This document shows, in pieces, positions 6,142-56,945 of a DNA stretch of 64,000 nucleotides. The stretch's first letter is position 1; the number at the start of each line of letters is the position of its first letter. This DNA is from an uncultured Hormoscilla sp. (lineage in GTDB: Bacteria > Cyanobacteriota > Cyanobacteriia > Cyanobacteriales > Desertifilaceae): positions 6,432,001 to 6,496,000 of the forward strand of contig OZ001293.3 of the NCBI GenBank assembly GCA_963921275.4, given 5' to 3'. The notes below the pieces were generated by a model. That model did not search any database and was not told where the DNA came from. It worked only from the letters and a program-made list of their open reading frames with translations. The translations under genes were made by a program, and so were the position numbers.

Positions 6142-6531
6142 TCTTAGTAGTCAATAGTCAGGCGGAGTGGGAAGCTAAGCTATTGGATAGCTGCTGGATA
6201 TGTAGTCCTGATTTTGCTGGCGGTTTCATCGACAATTTTAGTATTCTGGAATGTCGAGATGGCGAGAAGAGAAGACGACAAATTGCGCAAGAGCTGGGAT
6301 CCTGGCACAACCGCCAGCACAACCGCAACATTGAAACAGATAAAATATAGAACTAACAACTAACAACTACGGCGCGGGGTAGCAACCTATCAGCAGAACC
6401 CGCAGGTGCCGTCCGATTTTTCCGGAACGGTATATCAGGGACTATTGCCAACGGATTCCGATTGGCAGCGATTTAAGAAGTCAGCGTTGCCGTCCGATTT
6501 TTCCGGAACGGTGGAGGATAATTGATCAATT

Positions 6532-14751: not shown

Positions 14752-15684
14752 GGTCGGGGTCGAGCTGGGAATCACTCCCCAACCCTCCCTTTCGGAACCG
14801 GACTTGCGACTTTCACCGCATCCGGCTACTGGTTGGTAAGCTGTTGTCATCAGTAGGATTATTGGGTTACCCCGTATTCCCCTTACCCTCTGTAATTTTA
14901 CCCCTTATGGTCAATCCTATTGGACCGTTAATGATTTCAGCTCCGGAAGGTATGCGCTGCGCGCACGCTGCGCGATCGCGGAGGGTAGTTCAGCAAACCA
15001 TTCTAGCCGCTCTTCTCTAACATTTCCCCATTCTGGCAATTTATCGGGGCTCTGAACTTTACCCGGCTGAGACTCTAGTCCATATTCATACTTTTGGATT
15101 TCTCCTAAGTTTTGCGACGTGTTAGGGCTACTTTCACCAAAGGCTTCTTACCATATCCGTCCTACGTCTGCATATCCCAGGCATTACCCCAGGCGTTGGC
15201 TTCTTAGAACATCCTTCCTCTTCGCGGCTTGCGCTTTACATCTAACTGGTCCAAATGGGGACAGCTCACGTGAGGTTACTTCGTTCCCTGGTATCATTTC
15301 TCGATGCTTTTAGGTTCCTGCTATACCCCGGGAGTTCTTCGAGTGCGATGCTGGTAAGCAAATACTACCAACACTAACTGCCATTTCCCTTTTGGGCCAG
15401 CGTATAAGCCTTATTCCGCTGGTTCTTATTAACGAGGCTTTCACAGGTTCGCTTGTTCTAACCATGAGCATCTTTCCTAGCGGTGTCACTAGCTTAGGCT
15501 GCTAGCTATCCTACATTTAAGTCCTAGCTCCGCACCACGGCGATGTGACTCCGCAGCACTAAGGACCGGTGTTACCCCCACACCTGGGGAGAGGGAATTT
15601 AACCCCCATGATAACCAGAGTTATCCGGCAAATGAAACCAGACCAGACTTCACCGTCGCCAGTTTACGCCTGAACGAATCGCAC
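14752..15684 (-). mobile_element. ORF-less group II intron in zwf (933 nt)
   Basis: 5' GTGCG at 15684. Domain V TAGCCGGATGCGGTGAAAGTCGCAAGTCCGGTT, then domain VI ending CCCCGACC. Removal restores LYVD|NWRW. Confidence 0.95.
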
Positions 15685-25545: not shown

Positions 25546-26379
<834 letters not shown>

Positions 26380-27347: not shown

Positions 27348-29948
27348 ATGGCTATATTCAATGTTAGTACAGAAGCAGAACTCTCCCAAGCCATTACCGA
27401 TTCCAGGAATAATGGTATGTCAGATACCATTAACATCATGGGAGATATTACCCTGACCGGGTTGCTACCTCATATTGAAGAAGACGTCGGTCTCACGATA
27501 GAAGGAGACAACAACGTCATTGATGGCAACAACCAACACCGGCTGTTCTTTGTCCTCGACGGTAAAGTCAATTTCAACGAGCTGATCTTTAGGAACGGCC
27601 GGGCCCAGGGAGGTAATGGCGTCAGCGGAGCAGCAGGCATGGGCGGTGCCCTGTTTATCTATGACGGGACCATCACTGCGACCAATAGCACTTTCGAGAA
27701 TAATAGCGCCATTGGTGGCGACGCCGATTGCATCATCAAGATTGATTCTGCACTATCTAGTGGCAGTCTAGTAGGTGGTAATGCTAACTTTATCACTCCT
27801 ATTCCTGCTAATGATGGCGACGACGGCAAGGACGGCAGCGAGGACGGCGAGGACGGCGATTTCGGCGGCAACGGCGGCGACGGCAGCAGCTTCGGCGACG
27901 GCGGCGACGGCGGCTTTGGCGGCAACGGCGGCAACGGCGGCTTTATAGACTTTTGCGGCGGCCGCCGCTGCGGCTTTGGCGGCGGCGGCAGCAGCGGCAA
28001 CGGCGGCTTCGGCGGCTTCGGCGGCGGGGGCGGCATCGGCAACGGCGGCGGCGGCGGCTGCTTTGGCGGCGGCGACGGCAGCGACAACTTTGGCGGCCGC
28101 GGCGCGGGCATGGGCTCCGCCATATTCATTCGCTCAGGCACACTTGAGATTTCCAACAGCAGTTTTAACAGCAATATCGCCTTTGGTGGCACTGGCTATA
28201 ACTCCGGCCAAGGTCTGGGGGGCGCCATATTCGCCCTGCACCGCCTCACCAATACCAACGGGAACAACCAAGGCATGCCCGACGCTCTGCCGACCGTACT
28301 CTTTAGAAATAACCTAGAGTTCTCGGGTAATATAGCCGGAAACGTAAATGGAAATACCATAGACCTTAATAATATGGATGGGGTCGAGCCGGGAATCGCT
28401 TCCCGACCCTCCCTTGAGGAACCGGACTTGCGATTTTCACCGCATCCGGCTACTGGGTACTAGGCCCTTTTCATAGGTAGACTTAATAGGAATTACTTCC
28501 GTTAGCCCTTGCCGCCTGTCTTTTCTTCCCTTTCCTGGTTTAGCGAGTGGTTGTTCTGATAACCGTTAGTATCACCATTTTCAAGTCAGTTTTACCAGTT
28601 ATCCATACCTTATCCTCCACTTGCGTTTCGGATTAGTTCCGTGGCTTTTTAGGATTACTCATTCCAGCAGCTTCCTAGTATCACCGACCCACGTCAGCGC
28701 TGGCTACCCAGCATCATCTACATTACTGTAGATGTTATCCCAGGAATTACCCCGGGCATTCGCTTCTTGGGCCATCCCTTGAGGAACCGGACTTGCGATT
28801 TTCACCGCATCCGGCTACTGGGTACTAGGCCCTTTTCATAGGTAGACTTAATAGGAATTACTTCCGTTAGCTCTTGCCGCCTGTCTTTTCTTCCCTTTCC
28901 TGGTTTAGCGAGTGGTTGTTCTGATAACCGTTAGTATCACCATTTTCAAGTCAGTTTTACCAGTTATCCATACCTTATCCTCCACTTGCGTTTCGGATTA
29001 GTTCCGTGGCTTTTTAGGATTACTCATTCCAGCAGCTTCCTAGTATCACCGACCCACGTCAGCGCTGGCTACCCAGCATCATCTACATTACTGTAGATGT
29101 TATCCCAGGAATTACCCCGGGCATTCGCTTCTTGGGCCATCCCTCCCCCCGTGGCTTGCGCTTAACATCTAACTTGTCCTGATGGACAGCACACGAGAGG
29201 TTACTTCGTTCCCTAACAACATTTCGCGATACCTTTAGGTCCACACTATACCCCGGGAGCTATTTGAGTACTATATTAGCCAGAGTCTAAAACTAATACT
29301 AGCTACCATTTCTTTTTTAGGCCAGCGCATATAGCCTTATTTCGCTGGTTCCTTATAACGAGGCTTGCACATGTTTGCCTGCTCTAACCTTGGATATCTT
29401 TCCTAGCGGCGTCACCGGCTTAGGCTGCCAGTTATCCTACATTTGAGTCCTCGCTTAGCACCACGATGATGTCGCTTCGTAGCACCGAGGACCGGTGTCA
29501 CCCCCGTACCTGGGGGGAGGGGAATTTAACCCCCATGCGGTCAGAGTTCCCGGCTAATGAAACCGGGCTAGCGTTCCGTGTTTGACCACGTTAGGCTAGA
29601 ACGAATCGCACAGACTCCATTGGGTTAACAGGAGAAGATGAGAGGAACCTACTTGTCGGCGGCAGTGGAAATGATACCCTGATCGGCGGAAGCCGAGGAG
29701 ACTACCTTATCGGAGGAGAGGACGCCGATATTTTTGTTCTGAGGCCAACCACGGGTGCGGATCTCATCGTAGACTTTGAAAATGGCACGGACTTGATACG
29801 GCTAGCAGAAAGTTTGAGTTTCAATGATTTGGAAATCGTCCCTCAGGGCCAAAACACAGTGATTAACTATGAAGAGAAAACCATGGCCACTTTGTGGGGG
29901 ATTAATTCAATCCTGATTAATAGCGATGATTTTGCCATGGTAAATTGA
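27348..29948 (+). pseudogene. Glycine-rich secreted protein with an RTX/calcium-binding C-terminus, interrupted by an antisense intron
   Basis: Joining 28375 to 29612 gives ..DLNNI DSIGLTG..VGGSGNDTLIGG..GGEDADIFVL..DLIVDFENGTD..* ending at 29948. Confidence 0.85.
28376..29611 (-). mobile_element. ORF-less group II intron, antisense to its host gene, with a 365-nt internal tandem duplication
   Basis: GTGCG at 29611; domain V present twice; ends CCCCATCC at 28376. Confidence 0.92.
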
Positions 29949-30104
29949 AGTTTACCACGATACCTCACGAGCCGCCCCCGTTGCGCTGCGCAGCGCATGC
30001 GGTGCCTTCCGGGTTTCGCCGTGCGTCCGGAAGGCATTGTAAGTTGCCAGGCAATACGCTACGCTATTCTATAATTTTCTTTGTTGATGTATAACAGCAG
30101 GATA

Positions 30105-34153: not shown

Positions 34154-34623
34154 GCCGTTCGTAGTAAGACACACGGTTCGTAGTAAGCACTTCGATGCAC
34201 TCGCGCTACTCGCACTACCCCTCGCGCATCGAAGCGTGCTTGCCAGGCGCTTCGCGCCTAGAGGAGTCGTTCGTAGTAATATCATGTCTGATTAAATGCC
34301 CATAATAAAAATTGCATCACCTGTAGGTTGGGTTTCGTGCCTCAACCCAACCTCGATGTCTCTCGGGTTTTCGCCGTGCGTTCGGGAGACATCGAAAGTA
34401 AGCCCTGTTGGGTTTCGCGCTTAGTCTACCCAACAAACGCAAGAGATATTTTTTATTACGGTTAATCATCCCGACTTGATATAAGACACACTTTACGGCT
34501 TGCCTGTAGTTGGGTTGACTTCTGGAAACCCAAGGTCAACCGCAGTAATGGTTGGGCTTACCCACGACCCACGTTACCCAACCTACAGGAATTCCCAATT
34601 GGGAATTGGGAATTGGGAATTAA

Positions 34624-41619: not shown

Positions 41620-42110
41620 AAACTCGGGGGACAGCACTACCCCCGAGACATCGTACTCGCACAAAAGGGGAGACGCTGGCTCCTGGCCTTCCGATTTTTC
41701 CGGAACGGTAGACGCGCTCATTCAAAGTCCGATGTCACCACTTACAAGAGTCGGACCGATCGCGCAGGGGTGTGGTCAAAACCCGTTGGTAGGAGGCCTC
41801 GCCTTCTGTGCGCCCCGGTCGCTCGATGTCTCCCGGGAGCTCGATGTCTCGGGGGAGCGCTAATCGCACTACCCCCGAGACATCGTAGTCGCACTACCCG
41901 GGAGATATCGTAACCGCACTACCCGGGGCGCACAGCCCGAACCCTAAAGGGTCCGGCTACAGGAACAAAGCCCGCCTGCGCGGGCTATTTACACGCATCT
42001 AAGATGCACCCGGCTATCAACTACTTGTGACCGCACCCAAGAGACCGCTCGCGTGTCTACTCGCACAAAAGGGGAGACATCGTACTCGCACAAAAGCTTA
42101 GACATCGACG
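41620..42110. repeat. Cluster of nested small palindromic repeats
   Basis: Several GCACTACCC, GAGACATCG and GCACAAAAGGGG modules plus REP-like units. Confidence 0.8.
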
Positions 42111-45499: not shown

Positions 45500-45925
45500 C
45501 CTAATCTAAAATCCTTGCATCGGTGTTACATGTTTGCCATGAAAGCTTTCATCTGAGCGATAATTTCCTCTAACTGAGAGATTAACTTGGCGGCTTAATC
45601 AAGTTGGTCGGACTCTGCCAGTTGCTCGATCCTCCCTGCTAACTCTGGTATAAATCGCACTCCTACGGTGCTAGCACCTCCTTTCAGACAATGAGCGATC
45701 GGTGTCTCCTGGGTAGTGCTTCTAGGGGTCGGGAGACACCGACTGAGCTAGGGTGACTGAATTTTTGGTAGCAAGAGCTGTCTTTGCCTCTGTTAATTGA
45801 GTTTCGGCATCGGACACGAAGACTGGCAATAATTATAACTTAAACTCTGCGTCTCCTCTGGCGATAAAGTCCAGGCGATCGCCATCTACTGGAGATTCCT
45901 GATTGGTGACTAGTGCTTGGGTACT
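45500..45925 (-). pseudogene. Decayed duplicate of the HPt domain of the adjacent kinase
   Basis: 45841-45921 is nearly identical to 46261-46341; HCLKGGA motif. Confidence 0.75.
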
Positions 45926-45958: not shown

Positions 45959-48175
45959 CTAAAGGGTGAGGGTTGCGATCGCCTCTTGAGAAAGTTGTTG
46001 TATATATGCTTTCACCCGCGACAAGCTCTGCTCTATTTGTGCGATTAAATCTGCTGCACCCTGGAGTTGGTTTTCTTTCCCTTGAGCCTCCAGTTGAGCC
46101 GCCACCTCTGGGATAAATTTTACTGCTATTGTAGCAGCACCTCCTTTCAGGCGGTGCGCAAGAGAGACGATCGCCCCGGCATCTAAGGCAAGCAAAGCTG
46201 TTTGTAATTCCCCTAAGTCTGTTTCGGCATCTGACACAAATATCTGCAATAGTTCCAACTTAAACTCCTCGTCTCCTCTGGCGATAAGGTCCAGGCGATC
46301 GCCATCTACTGGAGATTCCTGATTGGTGACTGGTGCTTGGGAACCCGAAGCTGCAAGTGCGATCGCCTCCTGTTGAAGTTCGAGATTTTCTTTTGACCAT
46401 CGAGAAATAACGGCGGACAAATCTGCCATCGATACTGGTTTACTGAGGTAGTCATCCATGCCAGCTGCGAGGCATTTTTCCCGATCGCCCTTCATCGCAT
46501 TTGCCGTCAGGCCAATCACCACCGTATGACGTTCATCACCTTCGCGTTCCCGCAGCAAGCGCGTTGCCTGGTAACCGTCCAACACTGGCATCTGACAATC
46601 CATCAACAGAATTTGATACCATTCTTGCTCGATTTTGTCAATAAATTCTTGACCATTATTTACGCAATCAGCCTCGACACCCAGTTGTCGCAACTGATTG
46701 AGTACCACCTTTTGGTTGATGGGGGTATCTTCCACTAAGAGGATTTTAACAGCATCGTTTGTAGTAAACACTTTAGTGTTTCTACCCTCGGAAGCCCTGA
46801 AGTGCGCTGACGATTGCGCTGCGCGCACAGGGCTACGCCTACGCGAACGAACAACCGATTTGCTGACCAGGGAACTCACCAAACAATCGTACAGCGACGA
46901 TTCCTTGATGGGCTTGAGTAAATAGCCTGCAAACCCGCTTTCCCGCACGCGGTCGGCGATGTCCCCCCCATGGAGAGAAGTCAGCAGAATTAACTTCGTC
47001 TGGGCCAAAGCAGGTTCGTTTCCGATTAACTGCCTCAGCATTTCGCCGTTCATTCGGTGTCCCCGGGGAACGCTAATCGCACAAAAGGGGGGACACCGCT
47101 GCGGCATTTGCATGTCCAGTAGCGCCACCTCGTAAGGTTTGCCTTCCGAAGCTGCCTCCCGTAAAGCAGTGAGGGCGTGAGGGCCGTCTTCTGCTTCTGC
47201 AACGAACATACCCCAACTCCTGGCGAACATAGAGACCACCTTGCGATTAGTGGCATTATCGTCCACTACCAACAGCTTTTTCCCTGTGATGACTTCTGTG
47301 GAAAGATCCCTCGTCCTTTCGGACAGGGGCATGCCACATTCAGCGGCGATCGTAAACCAGAAGGTGGAACCAACCCCTTCTTCACTTTCTACGCCAATTT
47401 CCCCGCCCATCAGGGTTACCAGTTGCTTGCAAATAGCCAGGCCTAAACCCGTCCCCCCATACTTGCGGGTAGTGGAGGCGTCTACTTGAGAGAAAGATTT
47501 GAACAACTTTGGCTGAGCTGCTTTGGGAATGCCAATTCCTGTATCCCGGACGCTAAACCGAAGATGGCATTGGTTGGAGTTGACATTCCCCGTATCCACC
47601 TTGACGTGGATGACAATTTCTCCAGTTTCGGTGAATTTGAGGGCGTTGCCGATCAAATTAGTGAGCACCTGGCGCAGGCGAGTGGCATCAGCTTTGAGGA
47701 AACGCGGCACTTCTGGTTCGACTACCCCAGCTAATTCCAGACCTTTGGCAGCGGTTTGGGGCGCAAACAAATCCAGCAGGTTTTCCACTAGCTTTTTGAG
47801 GTCGAAATCATGGGCATCCAGCCGCATTTCCTCAGCTTCCAGTTTAGAAAAGTCGAGAATGTCGTTAATAATCAACAGCAGGTTCTCGCCACTGCTATGA
47901 ATAGTTTCCACAAAATCCCGTTGTTGCTGATTGAGGGGCGTTTTCAAGAGCAAATCCGTCATTCCCAGCACGCCGTTCATGGGGGTGCGGATTTCGTGGC
48001 TCATGTTGGCGAGGAATTGCGATTTGAGGCGGGCGGTTTCTAGGGCGGCTTCCCGTGCTTTTACCAATTCGTTGATGATGTCGGTTACCATGATGATGCC
48101 GCCGATCGTGCCATCGGGTTCGTACCAAGGTTGAATTGCCCAGCGGAGATATATTTGACTGCCATCGTCGCGCTG
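45959..48175 (-). pseudogene. Hybrid histidine kinase (HisKA-HATPase-REC-REC-HPt) missing its N-terminal sensor region
   Basis: FLANMSHEIRTPMNG, GGTGLGL, two receivers, HRLKGGA; starts abruptly inside a PAS/PAC motif. Confidence 0.8.
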
Positions 48176-48520
48176 ATGGATGACAGCAATGATGTCGGCG
48201 TCGATCTCTCTAGCGAAACAGATCTCAACTGGCAAATTGGCGATACTGGCGACTTCAACAGCGATGGCAACACTGATATTCTCTGGCGCAATTATGCTAC
48301 TGACGCGAATAAGGTGCAGCTGATGAATGGCACTACTGAGGGTAATGAAGTCTCTCTGGAAAGTTTGGCTGACAGTAATTAGCGCATGAGTGGCACGGGA
48401 GACTATAACAACGATGGTAATATCGACATCTTGTGGCGCAACTATGCGACTGGGGAGAATAAATTCTGGCTGATGAATGGCACCAGCAAGGACTCCGAGG
48501 TCGATCTGTTGACTGTCTCT
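48175..48520 (+). pseudogene. FG-GAP/VCBS repeat protein fragment
   Basis: TGDFNSDGNTDILWRNYAT and GDYNNDGNIDILWRNYAT, with a stop between them. Confidence 0.75.
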
Positions 48521-49088
48521 TTGATTATACGATCGAGCTTACACCCGGCCTGGATACTGTAGTCAGCACTGCTGCAGTTGGCTGGGTTGCCTAAAGTTAG
48601 GTTTGTAGTAAGCACGCTTCGTGCTTACTAGGCGTGAAAGCGCCTAGAGAGTCGGTCCAGTTTTCTCGTTCCCACTGGCAACCCCGGGGAACGAGGGTTT
48701 GGAAACTCTGCCTCCCTTGACAAATAAAGTTTTGGCCTAATTTGACTGCCGGTGAACAGGAGGAGATTGTCTGTAGCTTCCTCTCATATCATGTCTGATT
48801 AAATGCCCTAACATAAAAATTGCATTAGCTGTAAGTTTGGTTGAGGCCCCTTACCCAACTGAGTTTTGCGTTACACTCTATATGGTAAAAATCAGAGGTT
48901 CTTAATTGTGGGTAATCGCCCCTACTTTCTATCATAATGGAGATAGGTTTGAAGGGGGGGCATAATCGACGGTTGTCGATCGGGTCATTACTAAATGTGG
49001 AACAATGGTGTGAATAATTTCTTGGCAAGGCCACGAAATCGCAAGCATCAAAAAGATGAAATGTGAATGAATACATAGGAATAATGCG

Positions 49089-49345
49089 ATGTATGCGATT
49101 GATTTTGAAGCTACTATTGAAAATGGAATGATTCCGATTACGCAACAAAATTTGGCGCAATTACAGCCACAGATGAAAGTCGTTGCAATAAAAATCAGAG
49201 GAGAAACAAGAGGCTCTCAAGCAAAAGGATGAATTTTTAACCGAGGTAGCGCAGCATCATTTCGATCTGCCGCCAGACTATCACTTTAAGCGGGAATAAC
49301 TTTATGACAGAATCTAAATGTTTCTTTGATACCACACTGTATTCG
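49089..49345 (+). pseudogene. Antitoxin / PIN toxin remnants
   Basis: MYAIDFEATIENGMIPI.. frameshifted, then MTESKCFFDT. Confidence 0.5.
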
Positions 49346-49539
49346 TAAGATTTGCAGCACAACCAGTTAATCAAAGATGCCTTGACAATTCTGAACTCGT
49401 TTCTTATGAATAAATGCAGGTTTTCTCAGAACCGTCTGAGTTCATTCCAAAGTTTTTCTCGTTTCTCGTTCCCTGGCTCCGCCAGGGAACGAGGGTTTGG
49501 AGGCTCTGCCTCCCTCGGGACTTGTGGGCGGTCATTGCA

Positions 49540-50048
49540 TTGGCGTTAACCCCTATATCTCACTGCTAAGGCAGAGGAAATCGGTTATCATCCCCAAGTA
49601 ATTTTGGCAGGACGCCATGTTAATGACGGAATGGGGGCTTATTTGGGCGATCGCTTGATCAAACTGATCGCGACTCATGGAGATGTTCCCATTAAAAAAG
49701 CCCGGGTAGGAATTTTGGGTATAACATTTAAAGAAAATGTCCCAGATACCCGTAACAGCCGCGTGCCGGATATTGTCAATGCCCTGCAAGAGTTCGGCAT
49801 TACCCTCTTAGTTCACGACCCCTTGGCTAATGCCGAAGAAGTCAAGCCTCAATATGGAATTGTGCTGACTAATTGGCAGCAATTCTTTGATTTAGATGCT
49901 ATGGTATTGGCAGTGAGACATCGCCACTATCTAGAAATGCCCACCTGATAAGTTGCTCGGCTGTCTGCATCCTGAGGGTATTTTTATGGATGTCAAATCT
50001 GCCTTTAACCCGGATACCATTCCCCCTCACATCACTTACTGGAGTCTT
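49540..50048 (+). pseudogene. Nucleotide-sugar dehydrogenase C-terminal fragment
   Basis: YHPQVILAGR..GILGITFKENVPDTRNS; N-terminal part missing. Confidence 0.8.
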
Positions 50049-50056
50049 TAGCTTTC

Positions 50057-50179
50057 GTAGGGTGGGCACCGCCCACCACGGAAGCGCTAAAGCGCTTACT
50101 ACGAACTGTAGGGTGGGCACCGCCCACCACGGAAGCGCTAAAGCGCTTACTACGAACTATAGGTGGGCACCGCCCACCA
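50057..50179. repeat. 51-bp tandem duplication of compound REP-like units
   Basis: GTAGGGTGGGCACCGCCCACC..AAGCGCTAAAGCGCTTACTACGAACT, about 2.4 copies. Confidence 0.85.
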
Positions 50180-50500
50180 GACCCGCTATCAAGTATAATA
50201 TAATATAGGTGACGAGCGCGGACTCTCGGTTCGTAAAACATGAGGACTAATACCATTTTGTCAAAACAATGCTACAATTAATTTTAGCGTTATGGTATTA
50301 GTCGGTTTTAACCGACTTTAGCCTCTAGCATTTGGGTTTGAACCCTCGCTATCTCCTGGGTAGTGCGAGTACGATGTCCCCTATGCATGTGCGACTAGCG
50401 CTCCCCGGGGACATCTCCCGACCACGAGATAGCGAAGGCGGGCTGACAGCGAAGGGACCAAAGTCCTCACTACAAACCTTATTTTCAAATTCGATCGACA

Positions 50501-51505
50501 ATGGGAAGTATATTAGTCACTGGAGCCGCTGGTTTTATTGGTTTCCACCTCTGTCAACATCTCCTGACAAGGGGGGAATCTGTTATTGGCATTGATAATC
50601 TCAACGACTATTACGATGTTAGCTTAAAACAAGATCGGTTAAAACAGCTGCAACAACACCAGCAATTTCAGTTCGCTAAGCTGGATCTAGCCGATCGCCA
50701 GGCCATCCCAGAATTGTTCGATCGCCATCAACCAGAGAAAGTCGCTCATTTAGCAGCCCAAGCAGGGGTGCGCTATTCTCTGAAAAATCCCCACGCCTAT
50801 GTGGATAGCAACTTGGTGGGATTTGTGAATATTCTGGAAGAATGTCGTCATGGGGGAGTCAAGCATCTGGTATTTGCTTCCTCTAGCTCTGTTTATGGCG
50901 TGAATAGTAAAACACCTTTTTCTGTCCATGATAATGTCGATCGCCCGGTGAGCCTATATGCAGCGACGAAAAAGGCCAACGAACTAATGGCGCACACCTA
51001 CAGCCATCTCTATGGTTTGCCAACCACGGGTTTGCGTTTCTTCACGGTTTACGGACCTTGGGGACGCCCGGACATGGCCCTATTCTTGTTCACCAAAGCC
51101 ATTCTAGCTGGAGAACCCATTAACGTGTTTAATCACGGCAAGATGCAACGGGACTTTACCTACATTGATGATATCATTACGGGAGTAGTGTGCGTACTAG
51201 ACAAGGTTCCCGAACCCGATCCTAACTGGTCTGACTCCGACCCGGGAAGCAGTCACGCCCCTTATAAACTGTACAATATTGGCAACAATCAGCCCGTGGA
51301 ATTGCTCAGGTTTATTGAAGTCCTAGAAGCATGTCTGGGTATGAAGGCGCAAAAGCATATGCTCCCGATGCAGCCTGGGGATGTTCCCATCACTTACGCG
51401 GATATCGAGGATTTGGAAAAGGCGGTGGGTTTTCGACCCAGCACTCCCATTGAGGTAGGAGTTGAGCGTTTTGTTGCTTGGTATCGCAACTATTTCCAAG
51501 TTTAG
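50501..51505 (+). CDS. NAD-dependent epimerase (UDP-glucuronate 4-epimerase type)
   Basis: TGAAGFIG, AAQAGVRYS, YAATKK, YGPWGRPDMA. Confidence 0.93.
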   Translation: MGSILVTGAAGFIGFHLCQHLLTRGESVIGIDNLNDYYDVSLKQDRLKQLQQHQQFQFAKLDLADRQAIPELFDRHQPEKVAHLAAQAGVRYSLKNPHAYVDSNLVGFVNILEECRHGGVKHLVFASSSSVYGVNSKTPFSVHDNVDRPVSLYAATKKANELMAHTYSHLYGLPTTGLRFFTVYGPWGRPDMALFLFTKAILAGEPINVFNHGKMQRDFTYIDDIITGVVCVLDKVPEPDPNWSDSDPGSSHAPYKLYNIGNNQPVELLRFIEVLEACLGMKAQKHMLPMQPGDVPITYADIEDLEKAVGFRPSTPIEVGVERFVAWYRNYFQV

Positions 51506-51551
51506 GTAGGATGCGTGACAGCTATCATATGGGTACTGCTAAGTCACGCAA

Positions 51552-52166
51552 CTACTCTCCAGTTAAAATAGCAACCAATATGCGCATCAACTCTTGCAAG
51601 TCGGCGGGAACGCGATATAAGTTCAAGTCTTGAGTAATTTGCTTTTCCAGACGTGACAGCACCGAAAACTGCCAAATTTTACCAATGGAAACTGCTTCAT
51701 ACAACGGATTTTCCCCTTCTTCTGCTAGAGTGCGATCGACTGCAATTAATTCCACTGCCAACTGCTTAAAGCCCCGTTCTAGGTTTTCATCTTTTGCTGC
51801 AATCACCAATAACTGATTTCCTGCTTGCAAAAAGTAATCCAGATAACCTTTCAGTTGAGGTTCTACTTCCAGTGGATAGGAAACTTTTAATTTCGCTTCT
51901 GTATAGTCGATCAAGTACATTAAAACAGGCGCAATCAAAAACTCCCGTCTCGCCATCTCATTATCGATCGTGATATAAGGAAGGCTTCTTCTCAGCCGCT
52001 GTTCCCGAGATGACAAACCTTCAAGTTGTTGTTGGGATTACGGTAAAACTAGCTCTTTCGATGTAAATCCATAACCGAAATACTCTAAGATATCCTCGGG
52101 ATAGTAGTTCCATTTGAAATAATCAGAAAAATTACATGATTCGGGAAGTTCTATCTTTTTACTCAT
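51552..52166 (-). pseudogene. Conserved hypothetical protein with a disrupted 5' part
   Basis: MSKKIELP..FSDYF start at 52166 is stopped near 52040; NEMARREFLIAPVL follows. Confidence 0.6.
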
Positions 52167-52661
52167 TGTCCAACCTCACTAAGCAAAATATAGCCCGCGC
52201 AGGCGGGCTTTGTTTGTCTGGCCCCACCCCTCGTTCCCACGGCTCTGCCTGGGAACGGGTTCCGGCGGTGGTGGCGACGCAAAAGTGAGATGCGCCCCCA
52301 CAACTCCTCCAAGGGTAATAGGAAAAGAGGGCTACCGGTTCTGAAGGGGAAGTCTGACTATAACCGGTGGTGACGAGCGCTCCCGGTTACAGGGTTACAG
52401 GGAGTCTGGGGGTCGTCTCGATGTCTCCTGTGTGCCGTTCCCGTAGGGTGGCGCAGCCATGTCCCCTGGGACAAGAGCTCTGGCAGAGATATCGAAGTCG
52501 GATTAGGCAAACAACAGTCGTATAATTGCGTTACATAACTTAACAATAATTAATATAGCAAGGGTAAAGGTTCGGTTATATTTAGTGGTTGAGAAAGAAC
52601 GAGAAAAAATTTCCTCGGTGCGATCGCCCTTATCGGTGCGATCGCCCATTCATTCTTTAGG

Positions 52662-53020
52662 CTACATACCAATATGCTTGACTAAGGCGGCTGTCTGCTG
52701 TAGGGGAACCAGGCTATTAGCACAGAAAATGCCGGATGCGGCCACAGCGGGGACGCCAATGCCGGGCATGGTGCTGTCGCCGACGCGGTATAACCCAGGG
52801 ATGGGCGTTCGATGCGCGAGGGGTAGTGCGAGTAGCGCACCCCGAGTGCATCGAAGCGGTCCGGGAAACATGCCTTGACTGGCTTGACGGGAGAAGCTGT
52901 GGGCCGCACCCTCAGCAATACTGTGGCTTTCGCATACTAGGACATCTTTACCATAGCGGGCCAGGAGGCTTGCTGCCACTAACCCCCAATGCCGCTACCA
53001 ATGACGATCGCGTCTGGCAT
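52662..53020 (-). pseudogene. Phytoene desaturase / CrtISO-like FAD oxidoreductase, almost entirely deleted
   Basis: N-terminal IVIGSGIGG (frameshifted) joined to C-terminal GLYRVGDSTMPGIGVPAVAASG. Confidence 0.8.
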
Positions 53021-53080
53021 AGTTCTTTGGTCATCTACATTAGAGATAATATAACATAATGGACTGACGGTAGGGTACTA

Positions 53081-53951: not shown

Positions 53952-54349
53952 TAATACTCTTTTATGTCATTGTCATTGGTCATTGTCATTGCTTCGATAT
54001 CCCCCAGAGGGGACGCGCCACTCGCACTACCCCAGAGATATCGAGGGGGGGGTTCAGAGAGATTAGCTTGTGCTGTATATGAGTTGCCCCCCCGAAGCAA
54101 TCTCCTATCTTGCTGTCCAGGGGAGATTGCTAGCGCGACGGCGTCGCACGCTATTAGAGATAATATAACATAATGGACTGACGGTAGGGTACTAATACTC
54201 TTTTATGTCATTGTCATTGGTCATTGTCATTGCTTCGATATCCCCCAGAGGGGACGCGCTACTCGCACTACCCCAGAGATATCGAGGGGGGGGTTCAGAG
54301 AGATTAGCTTGTGCTGTATATGAGTTGCCCCCCCGAAGCAATCTCCTAT

Positions 54350-56614: not shown

Positions 56615-56945
56615 TAAGCACGAAGCGTGCTTCCGGGTTCTCTCGTTCCCTGCCCTGTGTCCCCCGGGTAGTGCGACTACCCGGGGGACACAGCCAGAGT
56701 CAGGGAACGTTCATCGGAGGCTCTGCCTCCAAAGTAAATCAACAACGAGTGTTTAATCTTCTCGCAGGAGGCATCCGCCTCGAAGGGATGTTTCGTTCCC
56801 TGTGTCTCGCAGGGAACGAGTGTAATTAGCTGAGGAGTTTCTTTATCTAACATAGCTGTAGGTTTTCCGATCGAGTTCTGCCAGCATCCTAGCTAATTTA
56901 GTACTCGCGAGATTTGGTAGCATCAATTCCCAGCCAACGGCGAAT

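Follow-up and report, generated by a model that had tools for sequence, protein, structure and literature searches.

The window analysed here, a stretch of 64,000 nucleotides from an uncultured Hormoscilla sp. (GenBank assembly GCA_963921275.4, contig OZ001293.3, positions 6,432,001 to 6,496,000 of the forward strand), carries two genes that are each interrupted by a small hairpin element, at 47055-47098 and 52810-52853 (window coordinates are used unless a contig is named). Both copies belong to an element family that is real, recently spreading and restricted to the genus within the sets searched. The genome analysed (G000, 7.03 Mb, HIP1-rich) was compared with four Hormoscilla congeners (G001-G004), the genomes of the genus being 93-97% complete. 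The reversed genome was used as control for repeat counts, and the 4574 called genes came from our own hexamer model, with no curated annotation. Elements and host genes in the window are the following (the types are defined in the next section; REP, repetitive extragenic palindrome):

45959..48235, minus strand: host 1, the remnant of a hybrid histidine kinase gene truncated at its 5' end (domains HisKA, HATPase, two receivers and Hpt)
47053..47098, plus strand: type A element with the AAAAG core, made up of TT (47053-47054) and a 44-nt hairpin; it lies within the first receiver domain of the kinase gene, antisense to it and just after LLDMQMPQ
47104..47108, plus strand: target motif at +6 to +10, GCATT, also found in the empty G001 allele
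52662..53021, minus strand: host 2, the collapsed pseudogene of an oxidoreductase which we take, from its GSGIGG motif, to be phytoene-dehydrogenase-like, with an internal deletion of ~1.2 kb and an early stop
52810..52855, minus strand: type A element, TT (52855-52854) and a 44-nt hairpin, replacing one G, on the strand of its host
52800..52804, minus strand: target motif position +6 to +10, CCATC
34191..34231, plus strand: shortened type A, TT and 39 nt, net 40, intergenic, inside a GTAG-type REP
56615..56632, plus strand: empty copy of the REP that is interrupted at 34193
34354..34396, minus strand: type B element, TT and 41 nt, net 42, inside another REP-like repeat
45700..45743, minus strand: 42-nt variant with GACCCCTA core
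53993..54043, plus strand: 49-nt type A variant with 5 extra nt in the left arm
54234..54284, plus strand: second 49-nt copy, carried by a 181-nt local duplication
41824..41910, plus strand: self-nested unit, an inner 44-mer (41842-41885) in the tip of an outer copy (87 nt), all within a third, older copy; common to G002 and G004
50347..50434, minus strand: self-nested unit, 88 nt
52419..52496, minus strand: type F unit with family arms and TT, of the 54-nt core class and holding one more micro-insert
30002..30041, minus strand: degenerate type B copy
56655..56693, minus strand: shortened type A copy with CTG..CAG ends

A sequence-only reading of the window had described the two genic inserts as 44-nt inverted repeats with a net gain of 45 nt, which was confirmed by orthologs, without target duplication. 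The kinase ortholog of G001 reads MPQ/MNG, lacking the insert, and the net difference is exactly 45 nt; the 52810 site is empty in all four congeners (G001, G002, G003 and G004), one G having given way to TT and the 44-mer, for a net gain of 45. The inserted residues are not common to distant orthologs. All sequences quoted in that reading were found at the positions given for them. The relatives that the same reading had listed at 34193-34231 (39 nt), 34354-34394 (41 nt), 45700-45741 (42 nt) and 53995-54043 (49 nt) were recognised as family members, and members are also contained in the clusters near 41824-41910, 50347-50434 and 52419-52494; the copies at 30002 and 56655 lie beyond its list. 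The repeat that it described as split at 34193 is indeed intact at 56615-56632, and the 34193 site is also empty at the G004 ortholog.

Both flagged host genes are broken in this genome. The kinase host is without its N-terminal sensor part (758 codons, as compared with at least 1669 in frame in G001). The 52810 host, a gene with ~500 open codons in 4/4 congeners, survives here as a remnant with a stop and with an internal deletion of ~1.2 kb, which ends 30 nt from the element. Tolerance of insertions therefore has to be judged from other genes. Upstream of the kinase remnant, positions 48172-49513 form a patchwork of short pieces that lie 12-17 kb off and reordered in G001, a sign of local decay.

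Structure, abundance and range of the family

Type A units consist of a 14-bp stem, a five-position tip stem that holds a C.A mismatch, a TANNN loop and a one-base bulge; an unpaired dinucleotide, mostly TT, stands on one side of the hairpin only. Among 263 in-register copies, 233 distinct cores were found, in which the tip (GCGC-TANNN-GCAC) is conserved and the stem variable. The C.A mismatch (G.T on the other strand) is present in 229 of the 233 cores, and a compensated change within the tip (G-C to A-T) in 15. Stem pairing is kept despite this variation: pair 11-34 is Watson-Crick in 218 cores (78 expected by independence) and pair 3-42 in 222 (109 expected). Covariation was 0.402 in an alignment of 71 copies (out of 72 candidate type A rows, from five genomes), as compared with 0.120 for shuffled and at most 0.093 for slid pairs, the shuffle test being inflated by relatedness. 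The covariation of the ends proposed from sequence alone was thus borne out and proved wider, extending to the whole 11-14-bp stem. The CGRTRY ends given with it are the commonest, and CTG, CCG, AGG, CAA and other ends were also found, with compensated partners. Recombinant arms account for few of the imperfect stems: among 30 stems with several mismatches, both arms were known in 2.

In types B and C, a 13-bp stem encloses a 15-nt core (a T-run, a 3-bp mini-hairpin and a T), a build shared with free 15-nt micro-elements of the same genome. The C-type tip GCGAAGC and the A-type tip GCG-ANT-AGC lie on the same strand. Further cores (E, F and others) sit on the same arms as types A-D, and the predicted modularity was upheld: the same arms bear at least six different cores, which swap or invert at orthologous sites. 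At such sites TACCC was exchanged for AAAAG (L094, L118 and L142), the tip was inverted between arms (L117), and both arms were altered together (L166). From these in-place changes we infer fold-back copying and conversion between copies.

Micro-elements of 15 and 24 nt (T-run, 3-bp mini-hairpin with a GNA loop, T) were noted in the window at 6417, 6498, 7889, 41695, 14954 and 46816, with at least 180, 80 and 233 copies in the genome, and use another target (TCG) than the hairpin family. A 13-nt pattern of the 24-nt form matched 46 of 151 genomes, the 22 loci inspected being other hairpin families; G190 (L224, L244) carries the same 24-nt micro-element as this genome. Distant cyanobacteria (G088, G070, G164 and G152; L218, L226-L230, L233-L235, L238, L241 and L242) possess long hairpins with 15-24-bp arms, of different families and all GCGC-TNC-GCGC-capped. 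Perfect hairpins of 56 nt with family-like arms and TTGACA inside, which are promoter-like, were found at 910859-910914 and 3717630-3717685 of G000 contig C1.

Inverted repeats with CGRTRY ends and arms of at least 8 bp numbered 457 in the genome and 25 in the reversed control, with length peaks at 44 nt (137) and 41 nt (43) and nested peaks at 87 and 89 nt. A search by tip and stem returned 386 units (A 304, B 57, C 18, D 7), as compared with 7 in the control. None of these units was found on the six small contigs C2-C7, which are also without HIP1; ~7 elements would be expected on them leaving out C3 (17.6% GC), which is probably foreign.

The covariance-model scan suggested with the sequence-only reading was carried out with 150 candidates scored per genome, and matched 4/4 congeners and 0/36 other genomes of the family and order. 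In a species collection, the exact 22-nt pattern was present at 74 or more loci, all Hormoscilla among the matches listed and ~90% identical to this genome where alignable. Class-wide, a 19-nt tip pattern occurred in 6 of 400 genomes, once each and always in coding sequence of one conserved gene. No match to the element pattern was found in viral contigs, nor in metagenome contigs with a stricter 30-nt pattern. The density is 56 per Mb in this genome, as compared with 0-31 per Mb in sampled stretches of relatives. The literature searched, with subscription journals mostly outside its coverage, contained no description of such repeats in Hormoscilla.

Junction, target and insertions in genes

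Joining the flanks of 183 non-redundant copies yielded 54 candidate empty sites, two rows of which matched filled copies. The net gain equals the hairpin length + 1 in 31 of 52 empty-site matches, that is, two bases (mostly TT) and the hairpin take the place of one target base, which is G at 19 of the 31 conforming sites. The gain is 45 for type A, 42 for types B/C and 55 for type F, and the same rule was found at 47055, at 52810, in topA and rpoC2 and for type F. Dinucleotide TT precedes 72 of 125 CG-ended single copies and is absent from empty alleles; it therefore belongs to the element. With hairpins of 41-54 nt plus 2, the units are longer than the 21-27 nt of cyanobacterial small dispersed repeats (SDRs), as had been noted from the window. 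Mobility, also proposed there, was established by empty sites in orthologs and paralogs and by relatives with copies at sites that are empty here: between genomes of 89-92% identity, either partner may hold a copy that the other lacks. Of 43 resolved relative loci, 20 are filled in both genomes.

Flanks of the 183 sites show a one-sided preference, CC/N/MNGGSWVATY, of ~3 bits (scores on this matrix are in-sample): AT stands at +8/+9 in 86 of the sites, as compared with 11 on the mirror side. The motif, 6-10 nt from the element, is seen in empty alleles and holds for types A and B, inside and outside genes, and for type F as judged by eye. In nested forms the element's own TANTC and GCACT stand at +6 to +10, which accounts for self-insertion. 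A general model of 4-5-nt target duplication was tried and failed (only 4/161 sites).

After removal of one false element and of hosts shorter than 150 aa, 81 units were located inside 74 called genes of 150 aa or more. Gene interiors hold 82 of 377 clusters, where 48-49% would be expected, a depletion of about twofold. Hosts above the curated NCBIfam cut-off include topA, glyS, pheT, metG, tmk, pepA, rpoB and rpoC2, the first six of which have one full-length match each in the genome. In TopA, 15 residues directly follow AHEAIRP, at a site that is empty in 5/5 relatives, including another genus; rpoC2 carries inserts of 16 and 15 residues that are absent from G003, and rpoB a 243-nt nest of elements (size from the DNA alignment, the tblastn alignment around the nested insert being unreliable).

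Indels defined by orthologs are divisible by three in 15/15 coding cases vs 9/19 elsewhere (Fisher p=7e-4), and plain 54-mers (net 55 by the rule) in gene interiors number 0/10. Insertion itself therefore takes no account of reading frame: the commonest unit length is divisible by three, and selection removes copies of other lengths. The proposed preference of intragenic copies for such lengths was thus found, its cause being unit length and purifying selection, while the statement that the elements add exactly 15 codons holds for the 45-nt unit only, since 42-, 48- and 55-nt and nested units exist. Among 65 genic type A copies, 36 are read in a frame rich in S/T/P, 10 as F-D-V..G-D-I and 17 in the two R-C..H-R frames (36/10/3 in the three sense and 14/2 in the antisense frames). 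The R-C-x11-H-R peptide that had been read at both flagged sites is present and stems from the palindromic ends; it belongs to the minority frames (17/65), and the two inserts face opposite ways to their genes.

Possible routes of movement

We lean towards considering the units as non-autonomous mini-elements (a hairpin of 41-54 nt and two bases) that travel as folded single-stranded DNA via a trans-acting strand-transfer enzyme. The strand asymmetry of TT, tip and target was taken as favouring single-stranded DNA; combined with conservation of structure over sequence, the lack of duplication and the GCGAAGC and GCG-ANT-AGC tips, it makes folded single-stranded DNA the best reading. According to PMC13037366, mini-hairpins of GCGNAGC type are far more stable in DNA than in RNA, and enzymes of IS200/IS605 and of REP-associated tyrosine transposases (RAYTs) act on folded single-stranded hairpins with bulges (PMC8266576 and PMC6006769). 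Structure would guide the excision and transfer of one strand, and stems would stay paired while diversifying because one arm is copied from the other (template switching) and copies convert each other. After insertion, copies do change in place, by changes of both arms together, core swaps and tip inversion. A Y1/HUH enzyme would be the first candidate as mobiliser, a tentative and on balance unlikely assignment.

A number of observations weigh against this account of folded single-stranded DNA and a trans-acting enzyme. The genome-wide hunt tied no enzyme to the element, in agreement with the earlier remark that it has no known mobiliser. Y1 genes occur in 5/5 genomes of the genus, two of them in this genome, and no copy was found near any of 22 scanned Y1 loci with a located HUH open reading frame (ORF), nor near 8 further Y1 loci. 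In this genome both Y1 genes lie among REPs of other, GTAG-type families, and neither is intact: one is without the first HUH histidine, and a frameshift disrupts the other. Element density is nonetheless highest here. Intact Y1 genes exist in congeners, none adjoining the element; intact Y1 proteins of the genus are subclass 1.2-like (L189-L191), 2.8-like (L207) and 2.1-like (L194). Guide-like covariation of tip and target is absent among 840 position pairs, the strongest signals linking the outer stem with adjacent flank bases. IS608/ISDra2 have a 4-5-nt target that adjoins the element, whereas the motif here is degenerate and separated by 5 nt. The loops of type B tips (CGT, CAT) fall outside the GNA class, stem mismatches have no strand preference (45 G.T vs 40 C.A), and no replication-strand bias was seen in 700-kb bins, GC skew being too weak for a good test of this. 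As to the junction, 21 of the 52 empty-site matches deviate from +1 (some come from poor paralogs), and 4-nt direct duplications were found at 4 of 161 sites where 0.5 were expected, topA included, so that the lack of duplication is a rule and not absolute.

Other enzymes were searched as well. Tyrosine recombinases (PF00589), present in all 14 control genomes, gave 0 matches in G000, G001, G002 and G004 and 2 on one small contig of G003. An IS110 candidate was rejected because the match carries two stops. Family motifs on both sides were found for 26 of the 4574 called genes, which by eye are ordinary apart from one IS5 copy and one transposase fragment. The Y1 proteins of L033 and L189-L191 match the subclass 1.2 motifs of PMC6006769 and are flanked by GTAG repeats, the G000 copy having QDH instead of HUH. 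Rfam CRISPR-DR28 matches at 41964-41987 and 52191-52214 are barely above cut-off; a CRISPR array was rejected there in favour of dispersed GTAG-type REP arms like those beside the L033 Y1 gene.

Movement could instead be the work of host replication and repair, without dedicated mobiliser: a structure-specific nuclease or a topoisomerase would free folded fragments that are joined at loosely preferred nicks, and template switching would rebuild the arms. This is a rather improbable account, with which several features agree, namely that no transposase gene is associated, that the target amounts to only ~3 bits, that junctions vary by 1-3 nt at many intergenic sites and that the rare 4-nt duplications resemble microhomology joins; both-arm changes and in-place tip inversion would be fold-back copying and inverted-repeat recombination acting on copies. 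However, the modal +1, the constant TT and the fixed 5-nt spacing of the motif, common to types A, B/C and F, resemble the geometry of one enzyme, the family is found in one genus within the sets searched although host enzymes are general, and the micro-elements of the same genome use a different target. Less probable still is an RNA route, in which group II intron-encoded proteins would act in trans on hairpin transcripts, copying them into DNA and inserting them, so that the family would amount to a minimal short interspersed element of bacteria. It would draw on the 93 reverse transcriptase matches in the genome, most of intron type, and on the strand with the G.U pair, which ends in AA and folds better as RNA in 217 of 233 cores (as DNA in 193 of 233). 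Against it, the exon flanks of introns (non-redundant sets of 184 5' and 107 3' flanks) have negative scores on the target matrix of the element at every offset tried, orientation by genes is unbiased (counts of 26 and 29 between co-oriented genes, and of 32 each way after stops), G.U-type mismatches show no excess on one strand, GNA triloops favour DNA, and no Rfam family matches the window copies of the element.

Mobilisation as a classical miniature inverted-repeat transposable element (MITE), by a DDE transposase (given TGT..ACA at stem positions 4-6) or an active IS607 serine transposase, is very improbable. Terminal inverted repeats are present, the genome has many IS5-type genes and five near-identical IS607-type resolvase genes, and one IS5 copy in the window lies between elements; yet the other three near-identical IS5 copies are outside the list of flanked genes (the search for matches to insertion sequences (IS) covered flanking genes and multicopy proteins), and the IS607-type genes are not linked to the element. 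There is no regular duplication, the outer TT-CGA..TCG bases belong to the element according to empty sites, the arms are hypervariable, the opposite of transposase-bound ends, and the target motif is not palindromic. This account is largely refuted by the empty sites at 47055, at 52810 and among the joined flanks, and 45 bp is very small for a double-stranded circle. That the hairpins are immobile now, either ancestral or host-selected regulatory structures lost in some lineages or assembly artefacts, is scarcely credible: the 20 of 43 relative loci filled in both genomes would fit it, but presence and absence run both ways, topA is empty in all five relatives, orientation near genes shows no preference, and a contig of run X1 covers the 47055 copy without differences, though this run may be the source sample itself. 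It is refuted for most copies by outgroup-polarised empty sites.

Returning to folded single-stranded DNA, a broader form of this reading can be stated, which we consider unlikely. A mobile DNA class of its own would be set apart by shape and not by sequence: a 45-nt single-stranded hairpin, its stem rewritten from the other arm and its mini-hairpin cores exchangeable, would be integrated by an undescribed enzyme that makes no duplication and measures 5 nt from a loose motif. Unit length would be tuned to threes for colonising essential genes, and the same machinery would lie behind orphan SDR-type and RPE-type repeats (RPE, Rickettsia palindromic element).

As regards the resident introns, one group II intron 5' end has 252 copies in G000, with a clear target consensus in the exons and CCA after the intron. 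In the window, an ORF-less group II intron of ~930 nt (14753-15684, minus strand) interrupts the glucose-6-phosphate dehydrogenase gene and holds the 24-nt micro-element motif at 14954; more intron pieces lie at about 25546-26378 and 28378-29611.

Relation to known repeats and significance

The family behaves like known but unexplained tiny repeats, and its junction rule and target motif are newly mapped here. Elhai et al. reportedly described, in 2008, SDR1-8 of Nostocaceae, repeats of 21-27 nt said to share secondary structure with compensatory changes and to nest inside other repeats and themselves, features that the element also has. Compared with SDRs by description, it resembles them in being cyanobacterial, very small, dispersed and without known mobiliser, and differs in its size (42-55 nt), its long variable stem and its lineage. 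In PMC5861425 no SDR-like repeat is reported outside Nostocaceae (on Nostoc SDRs, see also PMC3116915). Whereas SDR5 inserts between bases 3 and 4 of HIP1 (PMC5861425 and PMC4390886), the target of the element (183 sites, empty alleles) is without HIP1 GCGATCGC.

RPEs are, according to PMC10969869 and PMC3733652, palindromic repeats of ~150 bp found in frame in unrelated housekeeping genes, where they encode a conserved peptide. The element is likewise a palindromic insert that stands in frame in unrelated intact genes and adds a peptide, neither of the two having a known mobiliser, but it measures 45 bp, comes in 233 distinct cores among 263 copies, can be read in five frames, nests in itself, occurs in another lineage, and has a mapped junction rule and target motif. 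Systems of REPs and REPINs with RAYTs, as presented in PMC8266576, PMC6006769, PMC3116915 and PMC3733652, comprise strand-specific imperfect hairpins of 20-50 nt with a required bulge, some of them intragenic. The element shares with these and with IS200/IS605 the strand-specific imperfect hairpin and the lack of target duplication (4/161 exceptions). Unlike REPs it has no GTAG/CGTC foot preceding the hairpin on its 5' side. The GTAG that type A copies do contain is part of the stem; the AAAAG (34/233) and TGCGC (11/233) variants have other bases in its place, and types B-F lack it. Moreover, the Y1 genes are not flanked by the element, which inserts into the true GTAG REPs of the genome as a separate layer, and its degenerate motif 6-10 nt away differs from the fixed, adjacent and guided 4-5-nt target of IS200/IS605.

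MITEs such as Nezha, Correia and RUP have 70-300 bp, conserved ends and duplications (PMC10969869 and PMC3733652). The element is also non-coding, with terminal inverted repeats and many copies, but the repeats make up most of the unit and vary freely, duplication is usually lacking, and no ends shared with an IS were found among flanking genes and multicopy proteins. It also differs from integron attC sites, the IntI tyrosine recombinase not being found in G000, G001, G002 and G004, and from derivatives of group II introns, having no intron domains in Rfam and another target than the resident introns.

How bacterial repeats of less than 100 nt move (SDRs, RPEs and many REPs) is a long-standing question. 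The family is an unusually well-defined handle on it, no new enzyme or pathway having emerged yet. It combines features that the other repeats mostly do not offer, namely hundreds of recently inserted copies, empty sites of known polarity, a junction rule exact to the base, a target motif and naturally occurring variants of the structure; taken together, these specify a substrate with which the mobiliser could be sought in a biochemical or genetic screen. For annotation, the inserts create false family peptides, and both flagged genes are decaying remnants. The family also shows a route by which peptides of 14-16 residues, mostly rich in Ser/Thr/Pro, enter single-copy core proteins, among them topoisomerase I, RNA polymerase beta and beta'' and the glycyl- and phenylalanyl-tRNA ligases, with the selection on frame visible in the data.

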